The notes under the pieces: generated by a model | What the model was told of the DNA's origin: nothing | Database searches by the model: none | The model's input: the letters and a program-made list of their open reading frames with translations, nothing else | Source of the DNA: Halogeometricum borinquense DSM 11551 | GTDB taxonomy: Archaea; Halobacteriota; Halobacteria; Halobacteriales; Haloferacaceae | Length of the DNA: 32,000 bases | Direction of reading: 5' to 3' | NCBI RefSeq assembly: GCF_000172995.2 | Contig: NC_014729.1 | Coordinates: 690,001-722,000, forward strand | Shown: positions 1 to 24,754 of the stretch, one piece after another | Layout of the letters: each line of letters opens with the position of its first letter | Position numbering within the stretch: position 1 is the first letter of the stretch | Translations under genes and position numbers: made by a program

Positions 1-1212
1 ATACCTTCCTACTCCTTCATGTCTTCTACCCATATTTTCTCTTGGTGCTTCAGCTTGGTAGTGGTCCGGATTCTGGTACTCTTTCACGAATTCCTCTTCC
101 GATATAATTCCTTGTTGATAATACTCAAGAAGATATCTGTATTCTCGCTGTTTTTTGTGGCCCATATGCCATTGTTCTCCTCTACCTCTGTCTTTGTCCC
201 ACGTTAGCACTTCTTCTGTGTTTGGATCTCGAACCTTGTCGTCAATTCCCTCTGATCTTGCTCTGTTCCAGACTTCTTCGACTTGTCCTGGAGCGTACGG
301 TGGTCGATGATCAATACTGTATTTTTTCTGCTTATACTGTTCTGTGTCTTTTTCGGCGAATCGACCGATATTGTCCCGAGGCTGATCTCTCCACCGCTGA
401 ATGTGCACATCGGCTTTGTGCATCCGATAGATGCCGAGTTTCCCGCCGCTCATCACCCGCTGGGCCGTCTCTTCGGCTTCCCGTTCGAGACGCTCGTCAG
501 GATCAATTTCTAATTTCCCTTCTTGCGGGAGCATCGAGACGGCCCCACCTGTTTGCTGTCTCACATGCGCTAACTCGTGAGCGAGCAGGTGTTGACCTTC
601 TGTTGAAGAAGGGTCGTACTCGCCGTGGTTGAACGCGACATGATTTCCCACCGTGAACGCGCGAGCGTTGATATCCTCACAGGCGTTTGCGGCGCGTGAC
701 CCAGTATGGATACGCACGTCGTCCAAACTCTCGCCCATGCGCTCTTCCATCGCTTGTTGAATTGAGCTATCGAGTTGCTGGCCTGGCGAAGAAATCACGT
801 CACGAACCGAATCGGGGACTTGCGCGTTTCCAGATTTCGACGCCTCGTGGTGCGCGCCACGACTGCGCTGGACTGATTTAGCGTTCCGGCGCTCTATGTC
901 TTTGGGCACTTCGGCAGGACGCTGTTTTTGCCGTTCACGGAATGCACGCATGTCGCGCGGTTTGCCCATCGTGTCCACGGTCATGCCCTCGTCGGCCCAC
1001 TGCTGGACTTGGCCCGCGCCGTGTTGTTTGACAAGACGTTGGACTATCACCTCCAATCCATTCCGATACATGTCCATGCCGAAGCGCTGTTCGCAGCCCT
1101 GTGCGGTCAGCCGTCCACTGCGTTGCCGACGCGAGGAGTCCACGCGGTCCCGCTCGCTAGAAGGAGACCATTGGGTTTTCTTTTGCACCTCGTTCGCGGA
1201 GCGAAATCCCAT
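1..1212 (-). CDS. DUF4157-domain polymorphic toxin, paralog A, with a GH-E-like HNH/EndoVII nuclease C-terminal tip (3' end runs off the left window edge)
   Basis: Absent from the ORF track because no stop codon is reached inside the window. Manual reverse-complement translation from the ATG (complement of 1210-1212) gives MGFRSANEVQKK...GQQLDSSIQQAMEERMGESLDDVRIHTGSRAANACEDINARAFTVGNHVAFNHGEYDPSSTEGQHLLAHELAHVRQQTGG, a DUF4157-type signature with HExxH. This is followed by GIYRMHKADVHIQR and then ...LTWDKDRGRGEQWHMGHKKQREY...NPDHYQAEAPRENMGRRHEGVGRY. The frame stays open to base 1. The N-terminal ~270 codons are clearly paralogous to 22757..24664. Confidence 0.8.
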   Translation of the reverse strand, partial: MGFRSANEVQKKTQWSPSSERDRVDSSRRQRSGRLTAQGCEQRFGMDMYRNGLEVIVQRLVKQHGAGQVQQWADEGMTVDTMGKPRDMRAFRERQKQRPAEVPKDIERRNAKSVQRSRGAHHEASKSGNAQVPDSVRDVISSPGQQLDSSIQQAMEERMGESLDDVRIHTGSRAANACEDINARAFTVGNHVAFNHGEYDPSSTEGQHLLAHELAHVRQQTGGAVSMLPQEGKLEIDPDERLEREAEETAQRVMSGGKLGIYRMHKADVHIQRWRDQPRDNIGRFAEKDTEQYKQKKYSIDHRPPYAPGQVEEVWNRARSEGIDDKVRDPNTEEVLTWDKDRGRGEQWHMGHKKQREYRYLLEYYQQGIISEEEFVKEYQNPDHYQAEAPRENMGRRHEGVGRY

Positions 1213-20474: not shown

Positions 20475-20507
<33 letters not shown>

Positions 20508-20798
20508 GATGACAAATATTGTCGGGAGGTATGCCAACGAGATTGTTGTCGTTTTTTGGATCTTATGACTTTTTAGCTAAGACCTTGCCCGGAATTGCAT
20601 TCGTTGTAGGAATATTTCCATTATGTTGAATTAATCCCCGACGTATCTGCTGAGCCGCCAAGAGTTTCATTGCTTTGGAGGCCACATAACCAAGGGTCTT
20701 CCACCGGATCTTCGAGGGGGTGAGTTTCCCGCTGGCAGTGTTCGCCTTCAGTCACAGCACGGTGACAAAGAAGACCGAACTGGCGTCAAAATACGATG

Positions 20799-21227
20799 TT
20801 AGAAGCTGATGCCGTACCCGTTCTTTTTTGCGAACTCAATGAGGTTAATGCACATCTCAATCGTTCGATCTACGATCTCCATTCGATCGTCGTCAAGTTG
20901 ATCCTCGAGGTTCTTGCGGGCAACTTCAAGTGACGTGACGAACGTATCGAGTCCTTCTATATCTCGGACTACTCCGTCCTCGTCACGATACTTGAATAAT
21001 ATCTCTGCTATTGATGGCTCTCCCGTATCTACTACCTGTGTTGTTGGATTTTTATAGATCATAAACACATCATCCTGCCGTAAGTTCTCTTTAAAGTGCT
21101 TATATTCGGAGATTTCATCGAGGGAGTCGTCGTATTTTGAGTTTTCAACATGGTAACGGTAGAACTGTTTACCAGTTGCAAGCGTCTCCTTCTCGTCAGG
21201 GACAACTAGTGAGAATGTACTACTCAT
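20799..21227 (-). CDS. Putative immunity protein for the orphan toxin tip
   Basis: 142 aa, low GC, starting 4 nt downstream of the orphan toxin cassette. No signal peptide and no recognised family. The role is inferred from position only. Confidence 0.6.
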   Translation of the reverse strand: MSSTFSLVVPDEKETLATGKQFYRYHVENSKYDDSLDEISEYKHFKENLRQDDVFMIYKNPTTQVVDTGEPSIAEILFKYRDEDGVVRDIEGLDTFVTSLEVARKNLEDQLDDDRMEIVDRTIEMCINLIEFAKKNGYGISF

Positions 21228-21231
21228 ATTC

Positions 21232-21984
21232 TCACCACGGGCTCACGCTTTTGGCTACTCTATACATCAGCTCAAGCACCTCATTGGTCCACCTGTACGT
21301 TTCAACTTGATCAGAGTCTATGTCTTCGTGTTCACCAGTGTTGTCCATTCCCCTCGGGACAATAGCACATGCCTCAGTGTTCGCGAAGTCGTCTCCTGAC
21401 AGATCCAATACGGACTTGTTCAATCGATCCGGATTTTCAATCTTAGGAACACCATTTTCGTCTTGAGGTATTCCTGAGTTCTGTATATCGGCGATCTTAT
21501 TTTCCGCTTGTTTGATCGCCTCTCTTGCATGATCGTCATTACTTGAGCCAGTTTTTTCTTCGACGGCTTTCACAACTTCCCCCTTCTCCTTGTCCATGAT
21601 TAGCTTGTCAATTTCTGGGTTTTCTTCAGTGTATACATGAAATCCCTTAGCCATATTATCGTGAGCCGGAACTACTACAAGTTCATCTCTCTCGTCAAAG
21701 TCCTTAACAAAGCTTTCAACAAGATTTTTCTCCGGATGTGACGAGAGAACTTCCCCAACGTCACCTTGGTCCCCACCGAGATCTTTGGGTGAGTCACCGA
21801 TTCTCCAGAGGTCCTCGAAGAACTCATCGTATTTGTCATCGTCTACGGTCTGTTCTAACTCAGCGAGTAACTCGTCACTCAATCCCATCTCTTTGAGCGC
21901 CACCAGTGGTGACGCCACAGTATCCCGATCAGGGAGGTTGTTCCAGCGGGGCATCCGCTGAACGTGCACGTCTGAGTGCTCCAT
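21232..21984 (-). CDS. Orphan (displaced) polymorphic-toxin C-terminal cassette
   Basis: The 250-aa ORF begins MEHSDVHVQRMPRW..., exactly the junction motif found inside the 635-aa toxin (...HRMEHSDVHVQRVPQ...). 35 nt are identical (21956-21990 versus 23829-23863). It has no DUF4157 module of its own, and the remainder is unique and low GC. Confidence 0.75.
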   Translation of the reverse strand: MEHSDVHVQRMPRWNNLPDRDTVASPLVALKEMGLSDELLAELEQTVDDDKYDEFFEDLWRIGDSPKDLGGDQGDVGEVLSSHPEKNLVESFVKDFDERDELVVVPAHDNMAKGFHVYTEENPEIDKLIMDKEKGEVVKAVEEKTGSSNDDHAREAIKQAENKIADIQNSGIPQDENGVPKIENPDRLNKSVLDLSGDDFANTEACAIVPRGMDNTGEHEDIDSDQVETYRWTNEVLELMYRVAKSVSPW

Positions 21985-21990
21985 GCGATG
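21956..21990. repeat. 35-nt exact repeat, copy 1 (junction of the orphan toxin cassette)
   Basis: cgctgaacgtgcacgtctgagtgctccatgcgatg is identical to 23829-23863. The flanking bases differ on both sides. Confidence 0.9.
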
Positions 21991-21998
21991 GAGTGAGA

Positions 21999-22766
21999 CT
22001 ATTCGCGTGAATGAATAGCGAGATCAGTGAGATGGTCCTCTTCTTCAAGTGTTGACTCCGATAGAGAGTCTGCAAAGAACTGAATTCTGTCTGGTTCCAG
22101 CTCTTCTTTGAATTGATTGAGACATGTAACAAGCCGCCCTCTATTTATTGCACCAATTGTAGTATCCTTGAACCAGATATCTGTGTCTGTATAGACGCTT
22201 ACTAAAATACTTGTCATTGGACTCGAATCATCGTAGCCATCTATGTCATGGCTAACCTCAAATCGCAGAGGATCAATTGAAGAGCTGCCAAGGATGTCGT
22301 CTTCATTACGTCTATTAACGACCTTATAGTATTGATCGTTCTCAGAACAAAGATATCGGTTTTCACCACTAATATAGAATTTTGTCAATCCCGACCCGAA
22401 CTTAACGTTGGAAACGATCCGTTGATAGCCATCTTCCGTCGTGGATTCGCTAAACTGCTCAAATATCTCTGATACGTCTAATCCATCTTGATCTTCATAC
22501 TCATAGCTTTCTGCGATAAGATCAGTGGACTCGAAGTCATATATCTGATCCAGTGATACCTCATTTGGGTATGTGAATTCTCCAACTTCTATGCTAGTCG
22601 GTCGATAAAAACAGCCAAATGCATCAGATATGAGTGAAATTACAGTAGTAACATTCTGGTGTGATTCTTGAACTGATTCTCCGACATCATCAATTCGAAA
22701 TGTCCATGATGCATCTAAGTGAGGATTTGAGACGATGAAATCAGTATTAGGGATCATTACTGCCAT
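21999..22766 (-). CDS. Putative immunity protein for the DUF4157 / PD-(D/E)xK-like toxin
   Basis: 255 aa, acidic, low GC. Its ATG lies inside the last codons of the toxin gene (minus strand ATGGCAGTAA, a 10-nt overlap). No family recognised; the role is inferred from position. Confidence 0.65.
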   Translation of the reverse strand: MAVMIPNTDFIVSNPHLDASWTFRIDDVGESVQESHQNVTTVISLISDAFGCFYRPTSIEVGEFTYPNEVSLDQIYDFESTDLIAESYEYEDQDGLDVSEIFEQFSESTTEDGYQRIVSNVKFGSGLTKFYISGENRYLCSENDQYYKVVNRRNEDDILGSSSIDPLRFEVSHDIDGYDDSSPMTSILVSVYTDTDIWFKDTTIGAINRGRLVTCLNQFKEELEPDRIQFFADSLSESTLEEEDHLTDLAIHSRE

Positions 22767-24664
22767 TGCACCTCATTTTTGTTTATTTTACCTGTGATAA
22801 CCTTGTTTCCGACCACAATACGGACAGCATCAATGGGTACTGATCCAAATTGGATTTTCTTCATTATGTACGATTCAATGTACCGTTTTGCGTCCTCTAG
22901 CGGCTTACCTCTCAATTCTCCTTTTTCATCAATAGGGCTTTTGAAATTTAACTCAACTATCCTTTCGTGATGATCAACATTAAACTCATTAGATACGTCT
23001 TCAATTTTCTTACTAACAGAATCAGATTCAAACTTGTCTATAGTCTTACCTATCTCACCACTAATGAAATCTTTATCGACGTATCCTTTCTTTGGACTCT
23101 TTTGTTCTGCCCAGATGGCTTTATTCCCCTCCACAGCCAAGATGTCAATTCGATCTTCCCTGTCCGGTTCCATCTCAACATATTCTGACTGTCTTACGTA
23201 TGCAGCGAGTCGTTCTGTCTCAAATGCCACACCATCAAATACACTGTTCGGATCGTTATTTGACAACGATCCAATTGAATCGTCACCATCAACGACTGTT
23301 GTTGCGTCCCGCTGGGCGACATCCATCGTTTCTTCGAGTCGGGCCAGGTACTCCAGAATTCGTTCTGACCCATGTCCCTCAGCGATCTCTGTCAATAAGT
23401 TTCGTCGCCACTTTCCAAGTGTTGCAGCATGGTACTCGGAGAAGTCCTCGACAGTAGTGCCCATTACTGCACTGAACAGGTCTGTTCCACGTCTCTCCGC
23501 AATTTCGAGGGCGGATGAATCACCGGTAGCGATCACCTGGTCCACAGCCGAAGCGTTTCCTTCAGTACGGTACCCCAACAAGTCATTCAGTTGTTCTTGC
23601 TGGTCGGATGAGAGCGATCCCGAGTCATCGATAGCTAGATCCTCAGCAAAGTCGAAGCCTCGGGGGGTATCCGTACCATTGGCATTCAGCAGTGCCGCCA
23701 AAAGTTCCGGGCGAAGGCTCTCTGAGCCCTCACTGTAAGACTCTAGTAACGCTCTAATTTTCTCCTCTTGCTCTTCGTCAATGTCGAACTTAGAGAGTGC
23801 AAGCCCCAATCGGGCCGATTGAGGAACACGCTGAACGTGCACGTCTGAGTGCTCCATGCGATGCACGCCGATTTTCCCACCTTGCATCACGCGCTGGGCG
23901 GTTTCTTCGGCTTCCCGCTCTAAGCGCGGGTCAGGATCAATCTCTAACTCGCCTTCTTGGGGAAGCATCGACACCGCGCCACCAGTTTGTTGGCGCACGT
24001 GCGCTAACTCGTGGGCGAGAATATGCTGGCCTTCAGCACTTGATGGATCGTATTCGCCGTGGTTGAACGCGATGTGATTCCCGACGGTAAACGCGCGGGC
24101 GTTGATATCCTCGCAAGCTTTCGCGGCCGATGGACCCGTATGGATGCGTACATCGCCCAGATTGTCGCCCATCCGATCTTCCATCGCACGCTGGATGCTC
24201 GTGTCGAGTTGCTGGCCCGGCGAGGAAATCACGTCTCGTACGGAGTCAGGCACGTTCGTGTCGCCAGCTTTCGACGCCTCGTGGTGCGCGCCGCGACTAC
24301 GCTGGACAGATTTAGCGTTCCGGCGTTCGATGTCCTTTGGGACTTCTGCGGGACGCTGTTTTTGCCGTTCACGGAACGCGCGCATGTCGCGTGGTTTGCC
24401 CATCGTATCGACGGTCATTCCCTCGTCGGCCCATTCTCGGACTTGACCTGCGCCGTGTTTCTTGGCCAGTCGCTGAATCTTCGTATCCAGCCCGTCCATG
24501 TATATTTCGACGCCGAATCGTGATTCACACTCTTGGGGTGTTAGCGAACCACCGCCACTCCGGCCTCGATCACGACCTGAGCCTCCCGTCAGCTCTTGGA
24601 TCGAGGGGACAGACGAGGACCGATCACCCTCACGGGTTCGTTCCTCTGTAGATCGAAATCCCAT
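22757..24664 (-). CDS. DUF4157-domain polymorphic toxin, paralog B, with a PD-(D/E)xK-like C-terminal tip
   Basis: 635 aa. The DUF4157-type signature is GQQLDTSIQRAMEDRMGDNLGDVRIHTGPSAAKACEDINARAFTVGNHIAFNHGEYDPSSAEGQHILAHELAHVRQQTGG. The junction reads GVHRMEHSDVHVQR. The C-terminal region FETERLAAYV...DRIDILAVEGNKAIWAEQKSPKK fits E...D...E-x-K. GC drops visibly 3' of the junction. Confidence 0.9.
   Translation of the reverse strand: MGFRSTEERTREGDRSSSVPSIQELTGGSGRDRGRSGGGSLTPQECESRFGVEIYMDGLDTKIQRLAKKHGAGQVREWADEGMTVDTMGKPRDMRAFRERQKQRPAEVPKDIERRNAKSVQRSRGAHHEASKAGDTNVPDSVRDVISSPGQQLDTSIQRAMEDRMGDNLGDVRIHTGPSAAKACEDINARAFTVGNHIAFNHGEYDPSSAEGQHILAHELAHVRQQTGGAVSMLPQEGELEIDPDPRLEREAEETAQRVMQGGKIGVHRMEHSDVHVQRVPQSARLGLALSKFDIDEEQEEKIRALLESYSEGSESLRPELLAALLNANGTDTPRGFDFAEDLAIDDSGSLSSDQQEQLNDLLGYRTEGNASAVDQVIATGDSSALEIAERRGTDLFSAVMGTTVEDFSEYHAATLGKWRRNLLTEIAEGHGSERILEYLARLEETMDVAQRDATTVVDGDDSIGSLSNNDPNSVFDGVAFETERLAAYVRQSEYVEMEPDREDRIDILAVEGNKAIWAEQKSPKKGYVDKDFISGEIGKTIDKFESDSVSKKIEDVSNEFNVDHHERIVELNFKSPIDEKGELRGKPLEDAKRYIESYIMKKIQFGSVPIDAVRIVVGNKVITGKINKNEVQWQ
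23829..23863. repeat. 35-nt exact repeat, copy 2 (junction inside the full-length toxin gene)
   Basis: Identical to 21956-21990. On the minus strand it encodes HRMEHSDVHVQR. Confidence 0.9.
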
Positions 24665-24689
24665 CTTTCTACCTGATTGACAGCAACCC

Positions 24690-24698
24690 CATATAATT
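24690..24698 (-). promoter_or_regulatory. Putative TATA box for a leaderless transcript of toxin paralog B
   Basis: catataatt lies about 27 nt upstream of the ATG at 24664. It matches in sequence and spacing the element upstream of paralog A (1240-1248). Confidence 0.45.
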
Positions 24699-24754
24699 CC
24701 TCTCCGTTCGAGACCGAACGTTTCTGTACGGACGAGGACAGTGCGTGAGCGCCG

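Follow-up and report, generated by a model that had tools for sequence, protein, structure and literature searches.

The locus described here raises the question of whether a short exact repeat can serve as the joint at which a stored toxin tip is put back onto a full-length toxin. It lies in a 32,000-nucleotide (nt) stretch of the genome of Halogeometricum borinquense DSM 11551 (contig NC_014729.1, positions 690,001 to 722,000), which we call the window; all coordinates below are positions within it. The toxin in question is Hbor_07690, one of five DUF4157 proteins whose secretion by a type VI-like contractile injection system was shown to depend on the sheath (Zachs et al. 2024). The gene is the first of an array that continues with a putative immunity gene, an orphan tip and a second putative immunity gene. 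We consider it likely that this locus is a polymorphic toxin array of the haloarchaeal type VI-like contractile injection system, in which a 35-nt repeat forms the joint between constant front and variable tip and would enable the orphan to be re-attached. The array consists of the following features.

22757..24664, minus strand: Hbor_07690, predicted full-length polymorphic toxin and injection-system effector, 635 amino acids (aa); Pfam PF13699, E 2e-31.
23829-24664, minus strand: constant region of Hbor_07690, ~280 residues.
23829..23863, minus strand: repeat copy 1, encoding HRMEHSDVHVQR, aa 268-279 of Hbor_07690 and the last conserved element of the constant region.
22757-23828, minus strand: tip of Hbor_07690, 356 aa, no known domain matched.
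21999..22766, minus strand: putative immunity gene for the Hbor_07690 tip, 255 aa, assigned by position only; 10-nt overlap with the toxin stop.
21956..21990, minus strand: repeat copy 2, heading the orphan tip as the sole remnant of a constant region; it holds the orphan's ATG at 21982-21984.
21232..21984, minus strand: predicted orphan toxin tip, 250 aa (ADQ66365.1), starting at the Met inside the motif and devoid of a constant region.
20799..21227, minus strand: putative immunity gene of the orphan cassette, 142 aa, 4 nt past the orphan stop.

The published cloning primers for Hbor_07690 matched both ends of the open reading frame (ORF) 22757-24664 exactly. The 35-mer CGCTGAACGTGCACGTCTGAGTGCTCCATGCGATG was present in exactly two copies in the window, at 21956-21990 and 23829-23863, and 100 shuffles of the sequence gave an expectation of zero 35-mer matches. 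No third copy was found in the window when up to 3 mismatches were allowed. On the coding (minus) strand the repeat reads CATCGCATGGAGCACTCAGACGTGCACGTTCAGCG and encodes HRMEHSDVHVQR, and identity between the copies ends immediately on either side. The lower copy begins 8 nt past the stop of ORF 21999-22766 and includes 6 nt upstream of the ATG of ORF 21232-21984, which itself starts 14 nt past the preceding gene on the same strand. The two copies share codon phase 0, and a simulated recombinant between them, produced by a deletion of 1873 bp, retained an open frame of 519 aa. An earlier first-pass annotation of the same DNA had reported the repeat, its reach beyond the orphan's ATG and its abrupt ends, and had predicted from the shared codon phase an in-frame fusion with a loss of about 1.87 kb; the sequence comparison and the simulation bore out each of these points. 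To a chance match or an assembly artefact we give virtually no credence: beyond the zero expectation, both copies were also found in an independent DSM 11551 assembly (L035) and in a second strain, JAXCMF (L038), in the same arrangement, and the pair is therefore no artefact of assembly.

If the repeat is a joint, what lies before it should be shared and what lies after it should differ. DUF4157, listed in Pfam as eCIS_core, was detected in both full-length proteins of the window, Hbor_07690 and a second protein termed paralogue A. The match of Hbor_07690 reached 108 bits against a cut-off of 22, and its membership in the PVC-metallopeptidases is established by this score, which exceeds the Pfam gathering threshold, together with the presence of the HExxHxxQ...E signature. 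This family was described as a fold of three strands and three helices with the same signature (Zhang et al. 2012). In that study, several such toxins with variable C-termini were noted in H. borinquense, a recombinational origin was inferred for them, and the peptidase was proposed to release the toxin. DUF4157 likewise serves to mark toxins of injection systems (Geller et al. 2021). The features of paralogue A are as follows.

1..1212, minus strand: paralogue A, ADQ66343.1, 418 aa, running beyond the window edge; same constant region, predicted GH-E HNH nuclease toxin tip.
395..429, minus strand: diverged junction motif YRMHKADVHIQR of paralogue A, 71% nt identity to the 35-mer.

Like the orphan protein ADQ66365.1, paralogue A is annotated in H. 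borinquense DSM 11551, and its Pfam matches were PF13699 (E 1.1e-31) and PF14410 (E 4.5e-26). The homology tract between paralogue A (395-694) and Hbor_07690 (23829-24128), of 78% identity, stops exactly at the diverged motif, in keeping with the earlier observation that similarity between the two paralogues ends right after QR.

A search with the constant region returned 1031 proteins at E <= 1e-10, nearly all of them haloarchaeal. The pattern [DE][VI]H[VIL]QR was matched by 87 of the best 120 of these homologues, and the seven pattern-negative homologues that were taken into a 40-member alignment all carried near variants. In this alignment Q278 and R279 were invariant, H276 was conserved in at least 90% of members, and no conserved column followed. 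By alignment, the consensus of the end of the constant region is R-M-x-x-[ST]-[DE]-V-H-[VI]-Q-R, and unrelated predicted toxin tips start directly after QR. Constant regions of H. borinquense that are 97-98% identical and end in GGKIGVHRMEHSDVHVQR were followed by at least six unrelated tips, and homologues with near-identical constant regions by at least 16 unrelated tip clusters. Known toxin domains on the tips of homologues included deaminase, colicin D and GH-E. A conserved front joined to unrelated variable C-terminal tips, the arrangement that characterizes polymorphic toxins, is thus what these predicted proteins display. The first-pass annotation had suggested looking for the motif at front/tip boundaries of other haloarchaeal DUF4157 proteins, and it is there that the 40 aligned members end their constant region in the invariant Q-R.

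Two further observations concern the ends of the tips. Met is the first residue after QR (CAGCGG ATG; window 21951-21953) in ~15 of 33 junction DNAs and 19 of 87 homologues, far above background, so that two in-frame ATGs are found at the joint, one for the Met of the motif and one for the Met after QR. Translation may start internally at these ATGs, or they may be left over from stand-alone cassette ORFs. At the far end, many otherwise unrelated tips carry similar C-terminal tails, such as GDSQGDELGK, GDSTGDAQSRR and LEGKAQSRGDR (alignment columns ~838-850; P0018, P0028, P0037, P0054, P0067, P0074, P0024 and others), which may represent a second conserved element; the two tips of the window lack them.

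We then asked whether orphan tips occur elsewhere in the family. Among 34 related loci from Haloferax, Natrinema, Haloarchaeobius and uncultured Halobacteria, eight (Haloferax, Natrinema, Haloarchaeobius) contained a total of nine 5'-truncated copies, located 1.4-5 kb downstream of the full-length gene on the same strand and retaining 17-185 residues of the constant region. Loci with orphans include L001, L003 (two orphans), L006, L009, L010, L012 and L019. L001 and L003, the two that were checked, are tight same-strand arrays with another ORF within a few nt after each orphan; the order in L003 is full-length gene, I, orphan, I, further ORFs, orphan, I (I, putative immunity gene). The direct repeats shared by main gene and orphan in five loci measured from 122 to at least 300 nt, with 76-97% identity, and all of them end at the QR codons. 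Compared with these, the repeat in the window is the shortest, yet it is perfect. Orphan modules that share a region of homology with the full-length gene, another hallmark of polymorphic toxins, are therefore present in this family.

Moreover, the same tips were found in both positions. Tip identity was 97% between the L001 orphan and the full-length L004 protein, and also between an L003 orphan and L004; it was 89% between the L003 and L010 orphans and the full-length L006 tip, and 49% between the L012 orphan and the full-length tips of L021 and L023. The tip family of the orphan in the window matches the full-length proteins of L009, Hbor_28990 and P0153, with an identity of 72% to Hbor_28990 and 39% to P0153. 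An exhaustive profile search recovered this tip family in five clusters only; its two complete proteins are full-length DUF4157 proteins in which the tip follows HVQR or HLQR directly. Tip families that are full-length in one genome and orphan in another provide comparative evidence of exchange at the motif, the lack of which, like a lack of orphans outside this locus, had been named in advance as speaking against a role in tip swapping. A related case may exist elsewhere in H. borinquense: Hbor_38760 (region Hbor_38740-38770) was reported to be toxic, to have no predicted DUF4157, to follow a DUF4157 toxin-immunity pair and to possess its own protective partner (Zachs et al. 2024). Judging by this layout, it may be an orphan cassette.

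These results left open at which level, DNA or peptide, the joint is maintained. In 33 aligned junction DNAs (window and loci L001-L034), synonymous positions varied freely: Val was encoded by GTG, GTC, GTA or GTT, Asp/Glu by GAC, GAT or GAG, and Arg by CGG, CGC, CGA or CGT. Since synonymous sites vary in this way across the family, we conclude that the motif is maintained as a peptide and that at the DNA level it marks the end of the homology tract, without being a dedicated site; it acts as a joint because it is the last stretch of shared sequence, as VENN is in CdiA. The first-pass annotation's reading of the repeat as a joint for tip swapping was essentially right, with qualifications: the family-wide homology tract does end at QR, and neither a specific DNA site nor a recombinant in any of the three H. 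borinquense strains examined was found. A true site-specific element of the integron attC or shufflon type, served by a dedicated recombinase, would account for the sharp boundaries of identity, and a 10-bp palindrome, ACGTGCACGT, is indeed contained in the repeat; JAXCMF carries a resolvase gene ~2 kb upstream of its array. However, the DNA is unconserved beyond its codons, the palindrome is missing in most family members, and the repeats range from 35 to >300 nt with 76-97% identity elsewhere. No recombinase domain was found among the scanned ORFs of the window (the four array genes, paralogue A and nine others), and the JAXCMF resolvase is part of an unrelated element with an MCM gene, which DSM 11551 lacks. 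On this evidence, we rejected the site-specific explanation as highly improbable.

We next examined the position of the motif relative to the DUF4157 fold. In the constant region, a helical module (~aa 40-105) precedes the DUF4157/eCIS_core zincin (aa 152-229, with HELAHVRQ at aa 218-225) and a helix at 246-260. An AlphaFold2 model of the N-terminal part of Hbor_07690, built from an input alignment of 46 sequences, predicted the zincin with strands 173-175, 191-194 and 197-200 and helices 178-186, 210-227 and 246-260. The predicted local distance difference test score (pLDDT) exceeded 90 in the helical module and in DUF4157 as far as helix 210-227, and it was lower (~68-78) for helix 246-260, which holds the conserved Glu-rich LEREAEE segment. 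Motif residues 266-278, located after the third zincin helix, scored below 50 and showed no secondary structure. Among the bacterial DUF4157 matches listed, all ended before the motif, and no significant PDB match was obtained when the N-terminal model was used for a fold search. We thus rejected the possibility that the motif is a structural part of the DUF4157 fold conserved irrespective of what follows, an outcome that, together with an absence of orphans elsewhere, would have argued against a junction; the linker-like model and the nine orphans point the other way. In the model, the motif looks like a conserved, unstructured short linear motif. The peptide is probably a site of processing or release, or of hand-over, for the adjacent peptidase; a cleavage or hand-over reading is the most economical one because the motif directly follows the peptidase predicted to release the toxin.

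Such a conserved linker could also owe its repetition to protein function alone. According to this explanation, the repeat reflects a constraint on the protein only, the orphan is a small toxin translated independently from the Met of the motif, and recombination plays no part. The freedom of synonymous sites, with conservation at the level of the peptide, agrees with it, as do the conserved yet unstructured linker and the in-frame ATG of an orphan that starts 14 nt past the previous gene on the same strand; Hbor_38760, toxic without a predicted DUF4157 and neutralized by its downstream partner (Zachs et al. 2024), would be a precedent. Nevertheless, orphans elsewhere keep arbitrary fragments of 17-185 aa that would be useless to a stand-alone toxin, and their repeats end at QR. 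The same tips occur in full-length and orphan positions, both copies of the repeat have changed together in JAXCMF (see below), and a toxin without the trafficking region has no obvious export route. We therefore consider a purely protein-level origin of the repeat distinctly unlikely.

Taken as a front/tip joint, the repeat suggests how the array could have arisen. Judging from its anatomy, a new tip-plus-immunity cassette would have recombined into the gene and pushed the older tip downstream, entering either through a crossover in the constant region or through Campbell-type insertion of a cassette carrying the motif. Of the constant region, the displaced older tip would have kept just the final 35 nt. 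As the two copies are identical direct repeats that share their codon phase, the orphan tip could then be rejoined to the constant region by homologous recombination or by gene conversion between them. In the meantime, the orphan might be translated from the ATG of the motif within the operon.

A comparison of the three strains provided partial traces of such events. JAXCMF has the same four-gene array in another upstream and downstream context, and its two 35-mers (L038 6802-6836 and 8676-8710) show an identical synonymous change, TCA>TCC, with respect to DSM 11551. By a rough estimate, two independent identical changes would have a probability of ~1%, and gene conversion or recombination between the copies or with paralogues is thus the simpler explanation. 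As a separate observation, the JAXCMF array adjoins the MCM helicase and resolvase genes, and a 1-nt indel breaks its main gene up into two ORFs, 586 and 57 aa long.

In the third strain, RZHH, the orthologous locus contains an allelic Hbor_07690 tip (73% aa identity) with its immunity gene. The motif and most of the orphan toxin have been lost there (L039 7600-9200), while the immunity gene of the orphan is intact. Loss of the toxin with retention of the immunity gene is the usual decay path of orphans, and since RZHH keeps the immunity gene without the orphan toxin, this gene is probably the part under selection. We also observed that the retained gene resembles the Hbor_28990 immunity allele and that the last ~45 nt of the first immunity gene and the 8-nt spacer are kept up to the deletion point. 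The RZHH homologue of Hbor_28990 (L036 100-340) apparently lacks aa 19-224, and with them the whole DUF4157, its start being fused in frame to QQTGGAVSML; runs of N nearby indicate that this gap may be an artefact of collapsed repeats.

Several points weigh against re-attachment through the repeat. The predicted 1873-bp deletion or fusion was not seen in any of the three H. borinquense strains, and the concerted substitution in JAXCMF concerns one site only. Homologous recombination would have only 35 bp to work with, which is very little, and a cell undergoing the deletion would lose an immunity gene while siblings still make the toxin; as a result, deletion between the 35-mers is expected to be rare and usually selected against. 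We infer that recombination takes place at the 35-mer itself, and likewise how often and in which direction. Paralogues in the genome share ~94% DNA identity just upstream of the motif, so that 35 identical bases between recently related paralogues are statistically unremarkable; the remarkable feature of the repeat is its abrupt boundary on both sides. In addition, Hbor_07690 was not toxic when expressed in Haloferax volcanii (Zachs et al. 2024), and neither tip of the array matches a toxin domain, with the consequence that the toxin and immunity roles at this locus rest on the context of the family.

Concerning this context, several paralogues of Hbor_07690 were toxic in H. volcanii and were neutralized by the downstream gene (Zachs et al. 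2024). In the array, neither the two tips nor the two small ORFs were matched significantly in Pfam and NCBIfam scans, a sequence search of the PDB with the orphan yielded only noise, and the AlphaFold2 model of the orphan (pLDDT 39) was unusable. The tip of Hbor_07690 had homologues only within H. borinquense. On the same strand, each tip is overlapped or directly followed by one of the small ORFs, which vary between alleles together with the toxin cores; protection by a downstream gene is known from experiments on paralogues only, and many PVC-type toxins were reported to lack adjacent immunity genes (Zhang et al. 2012; Geller et al. 2021). The GC content over tips and immunity genes is 38-49%, compared with ~60% in the surrounding DNA.

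The closest relative of the orphan cassette offers another route of exchange. We compared the cassette with a 1449-nt contig that contains the 3' part of Hbor_28990 and the gene for a 140-aa protein downstream of it, and found two conserved flanks.

21840..21990, minus strand: 5' flank of the orphan cassette, made up of the motif and the first 39 tip codons; 151/151 nt agree with Hbor_28990.
20729..20872, minus strand: 3' flank of the orphan cassette; 143/144 nt agree with the Hbor_28990 locus, whose contig ends there.

Beyond the 5' flank, the next ~45 nt are near-identical (to ~200 nt), after which identity drops to ~70% over the toxin core and the greater part of the immunity gene. The 3' flank spans the last ~73 nt of the immunity gene and at least 72 nt past its stop, and it is also present in RZHH. 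At the protein level, the first 70 aa of the orphan and of the Hbor_28990 tip are 100% identical and the rest is much more diverged, for an overall identity of 72%; the putative 142-aa immunity gene of the orphan and the 140-aa gene that follows Hbor_28990 are alleles. A similar pattern was observed for the Hbor_07690 tip between strains, where almost no differences fall within the first ~190 residues, in contrast to the last ~165, which have diverged together with the immunity gene. By sequence comparison, the cassettes thus appear as conserved flanks around a variable toxin-immunity core, with bipartite tips, and exchange by double crossover or conversion would therefore be possible with no loss of an immunity gene. 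Hbor_28990 (P0015) was also considered as the predicted recombinant itself and rejected, as it is a paralogous locus with a tip of 72% identity.

It follows that the main partner of the orphan cassette might be the distant Hbor_28990 locus, with allelic cores swapped across identical flanks, nothing deleted, and the 35-mer left as the stump of a displacement. The two flanks (151/151 nt, and 143/144 nt reaching past the stop) around a core of ~70% identity are what this explanation expects, the Hbor_07690 tip shows a like pattern of flank and core between strains, and the route costs no immunity gene. On the other hand, no conversion event was observed, and the loci are far apart, judging from the numbering of locus tags, so that single crossovers would rearrange the chromosome. 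Moreover, this exchange is compatible with recombination at the 35-mer. We regard Hbor_28990 as the main partner as quite possible, if somewhat short of probable, and conversion with it as a more likely route of exchange than recombination between the 35-mers.

A wider proposal combines both levels. The peptide RMxxS[DE]VH[VI]QR would be at the same time the cis-cleavage and release site of DUF4157 and the swap point of the gene, and flanked cassettes would be exchanged throughout the genome among ~10 paralogous loci and orphan slots, possibly via excised 1.9-kb circles. This proposal is tentative, and on balance we doubt it; if true, one short element would say "cut here" to the protein and "swap here" to the gene, within an archaeal network of toxin-cassette exchange.

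Returning to the array as a front/tip joint with a stored tip, we also noted features in its surroundings.

24665..24705, minus strand: leader GGAGAGGAATTATATGGGGTTGCTGTCAATCAGGTAGAAAG, ~40 nt, kept in the three strains though the sequence farther upstream differs; TATA-like TTATAT inside.

This segment is a candidate promoter and leader of the operon, and the orphan has no counterpart to it. Downstream of the array, a (TA)n microsatellite of ~30 nt (window ~20480-20512) varies in length between strains. Upstream, ~3.9 kb (window 24.7-28.6 kb) separate a phosphoribosyltransferase gene from Hbor_07690, with 38-42% GC at 26.0-28.4 kb and ORFs matching a CARF-associated helix-turn-helix protein, DUF6338 and PadR/HxlR. 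This segment is probably a separate insertion, since it is absent at the orthologous position in RZHH. No injection-system genes were found within the window.

Contact-dependent killing by archaea was first demonstrated in 2024, in H. borinquense, with Hbor_07690 among the secreted proteins. According to our analysis, these effectors consist of a constant front that is followed, past a fixed joint, by an exchangeable tip, and further tips are kept in reserve downstream; the joint would provide a handle on how archaea diversify their weapons. It supplies a nucleotide-precise rule for spotting effector tips and orphan toxins in haloarchaeal genomes, and chimeric cargo could be engineered by fusion after QR. 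With it also comes a candidate cleavage or hand-over site for DUF4157, the function of which is still given as unknown in papers on extracellular contractile injection systems (eCIS). Polymorphic toxins with orphan cassettes are established in bacteria, and known biology is accordingly extended here, not changed; what is added is comparative evidence, the link to an effector secreted in experiments and the flank structure of the cassettes. In the literature searched, we found no description of a junction motif or of orphan cassettes for the haloarchaeal DUF4157 family, and an earlier description is possible.

How, then, does this locus compare with known systems? Hbor_07690 belongs to the same family as the PVC-metallopeptidase/eCIS toxins of Zhang et al. 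2012 and Geller et al. 2021, the accessible parts of which describe no junction motif, orphan cassettes or repeat boundaries, features that are mapped here to the nucleotide. Zachs et al. 2024 studied the same organism and protein; neither modular exchange nor the junction motif nor orphan tips are discussed there. With the CdiA-CT/CdiI systems, the locus shares a constant front, a short conserved peptide (VENN in CdiA), a variable tip and an immunity gene, as well as downstream orphan pairs that keep an upstream coding piece able to recombine. Unlike CdiA, which features hemagglutinin repeats, the VENN motif and type V secretion, it has a front of ~280 aa with a DUF4157 zincin, delivery by contractile injection and an archaeal host. 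Rhs proteins (PxxxxDPxGL) likewise have downstream orphan tips and a phage-tail-like delivery. In Salmonella, recombination between orphan and full-length rhs was shown in vivo (Koskiniemi et al. 2014), whereas it is only predicted here, and the RHS repeats have no counterpart at this locus according to Pfam. Furthermore, the Rhs junction motif is part of an aspartyl autoprotease, in contrast to the present motif, an unstructured linker in the model, whose putative protease is the separate zincin upstream. The proposal that the motif plays the role of VENN or PxxxxDPxGL holds insofar as it is a family-wide joint followed by orphan tips. The MafB-CT cassettes of the Neisseria maf islands are also alternative C-termini with immunity genes downstream of a full-length toxin, and differ in their DUF1020/MafB N-terminal domain, Sec-dependent export and bacterial host. 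In Pfam scans, the array matched eCIS_core only, with GH-E in addition in paralogue A, and none of the signature features of CdiA or Rhs. Thus, the locus is functionally like the CdiA/VENN, Rhs and MafB orphan systems while being a member of none of them.

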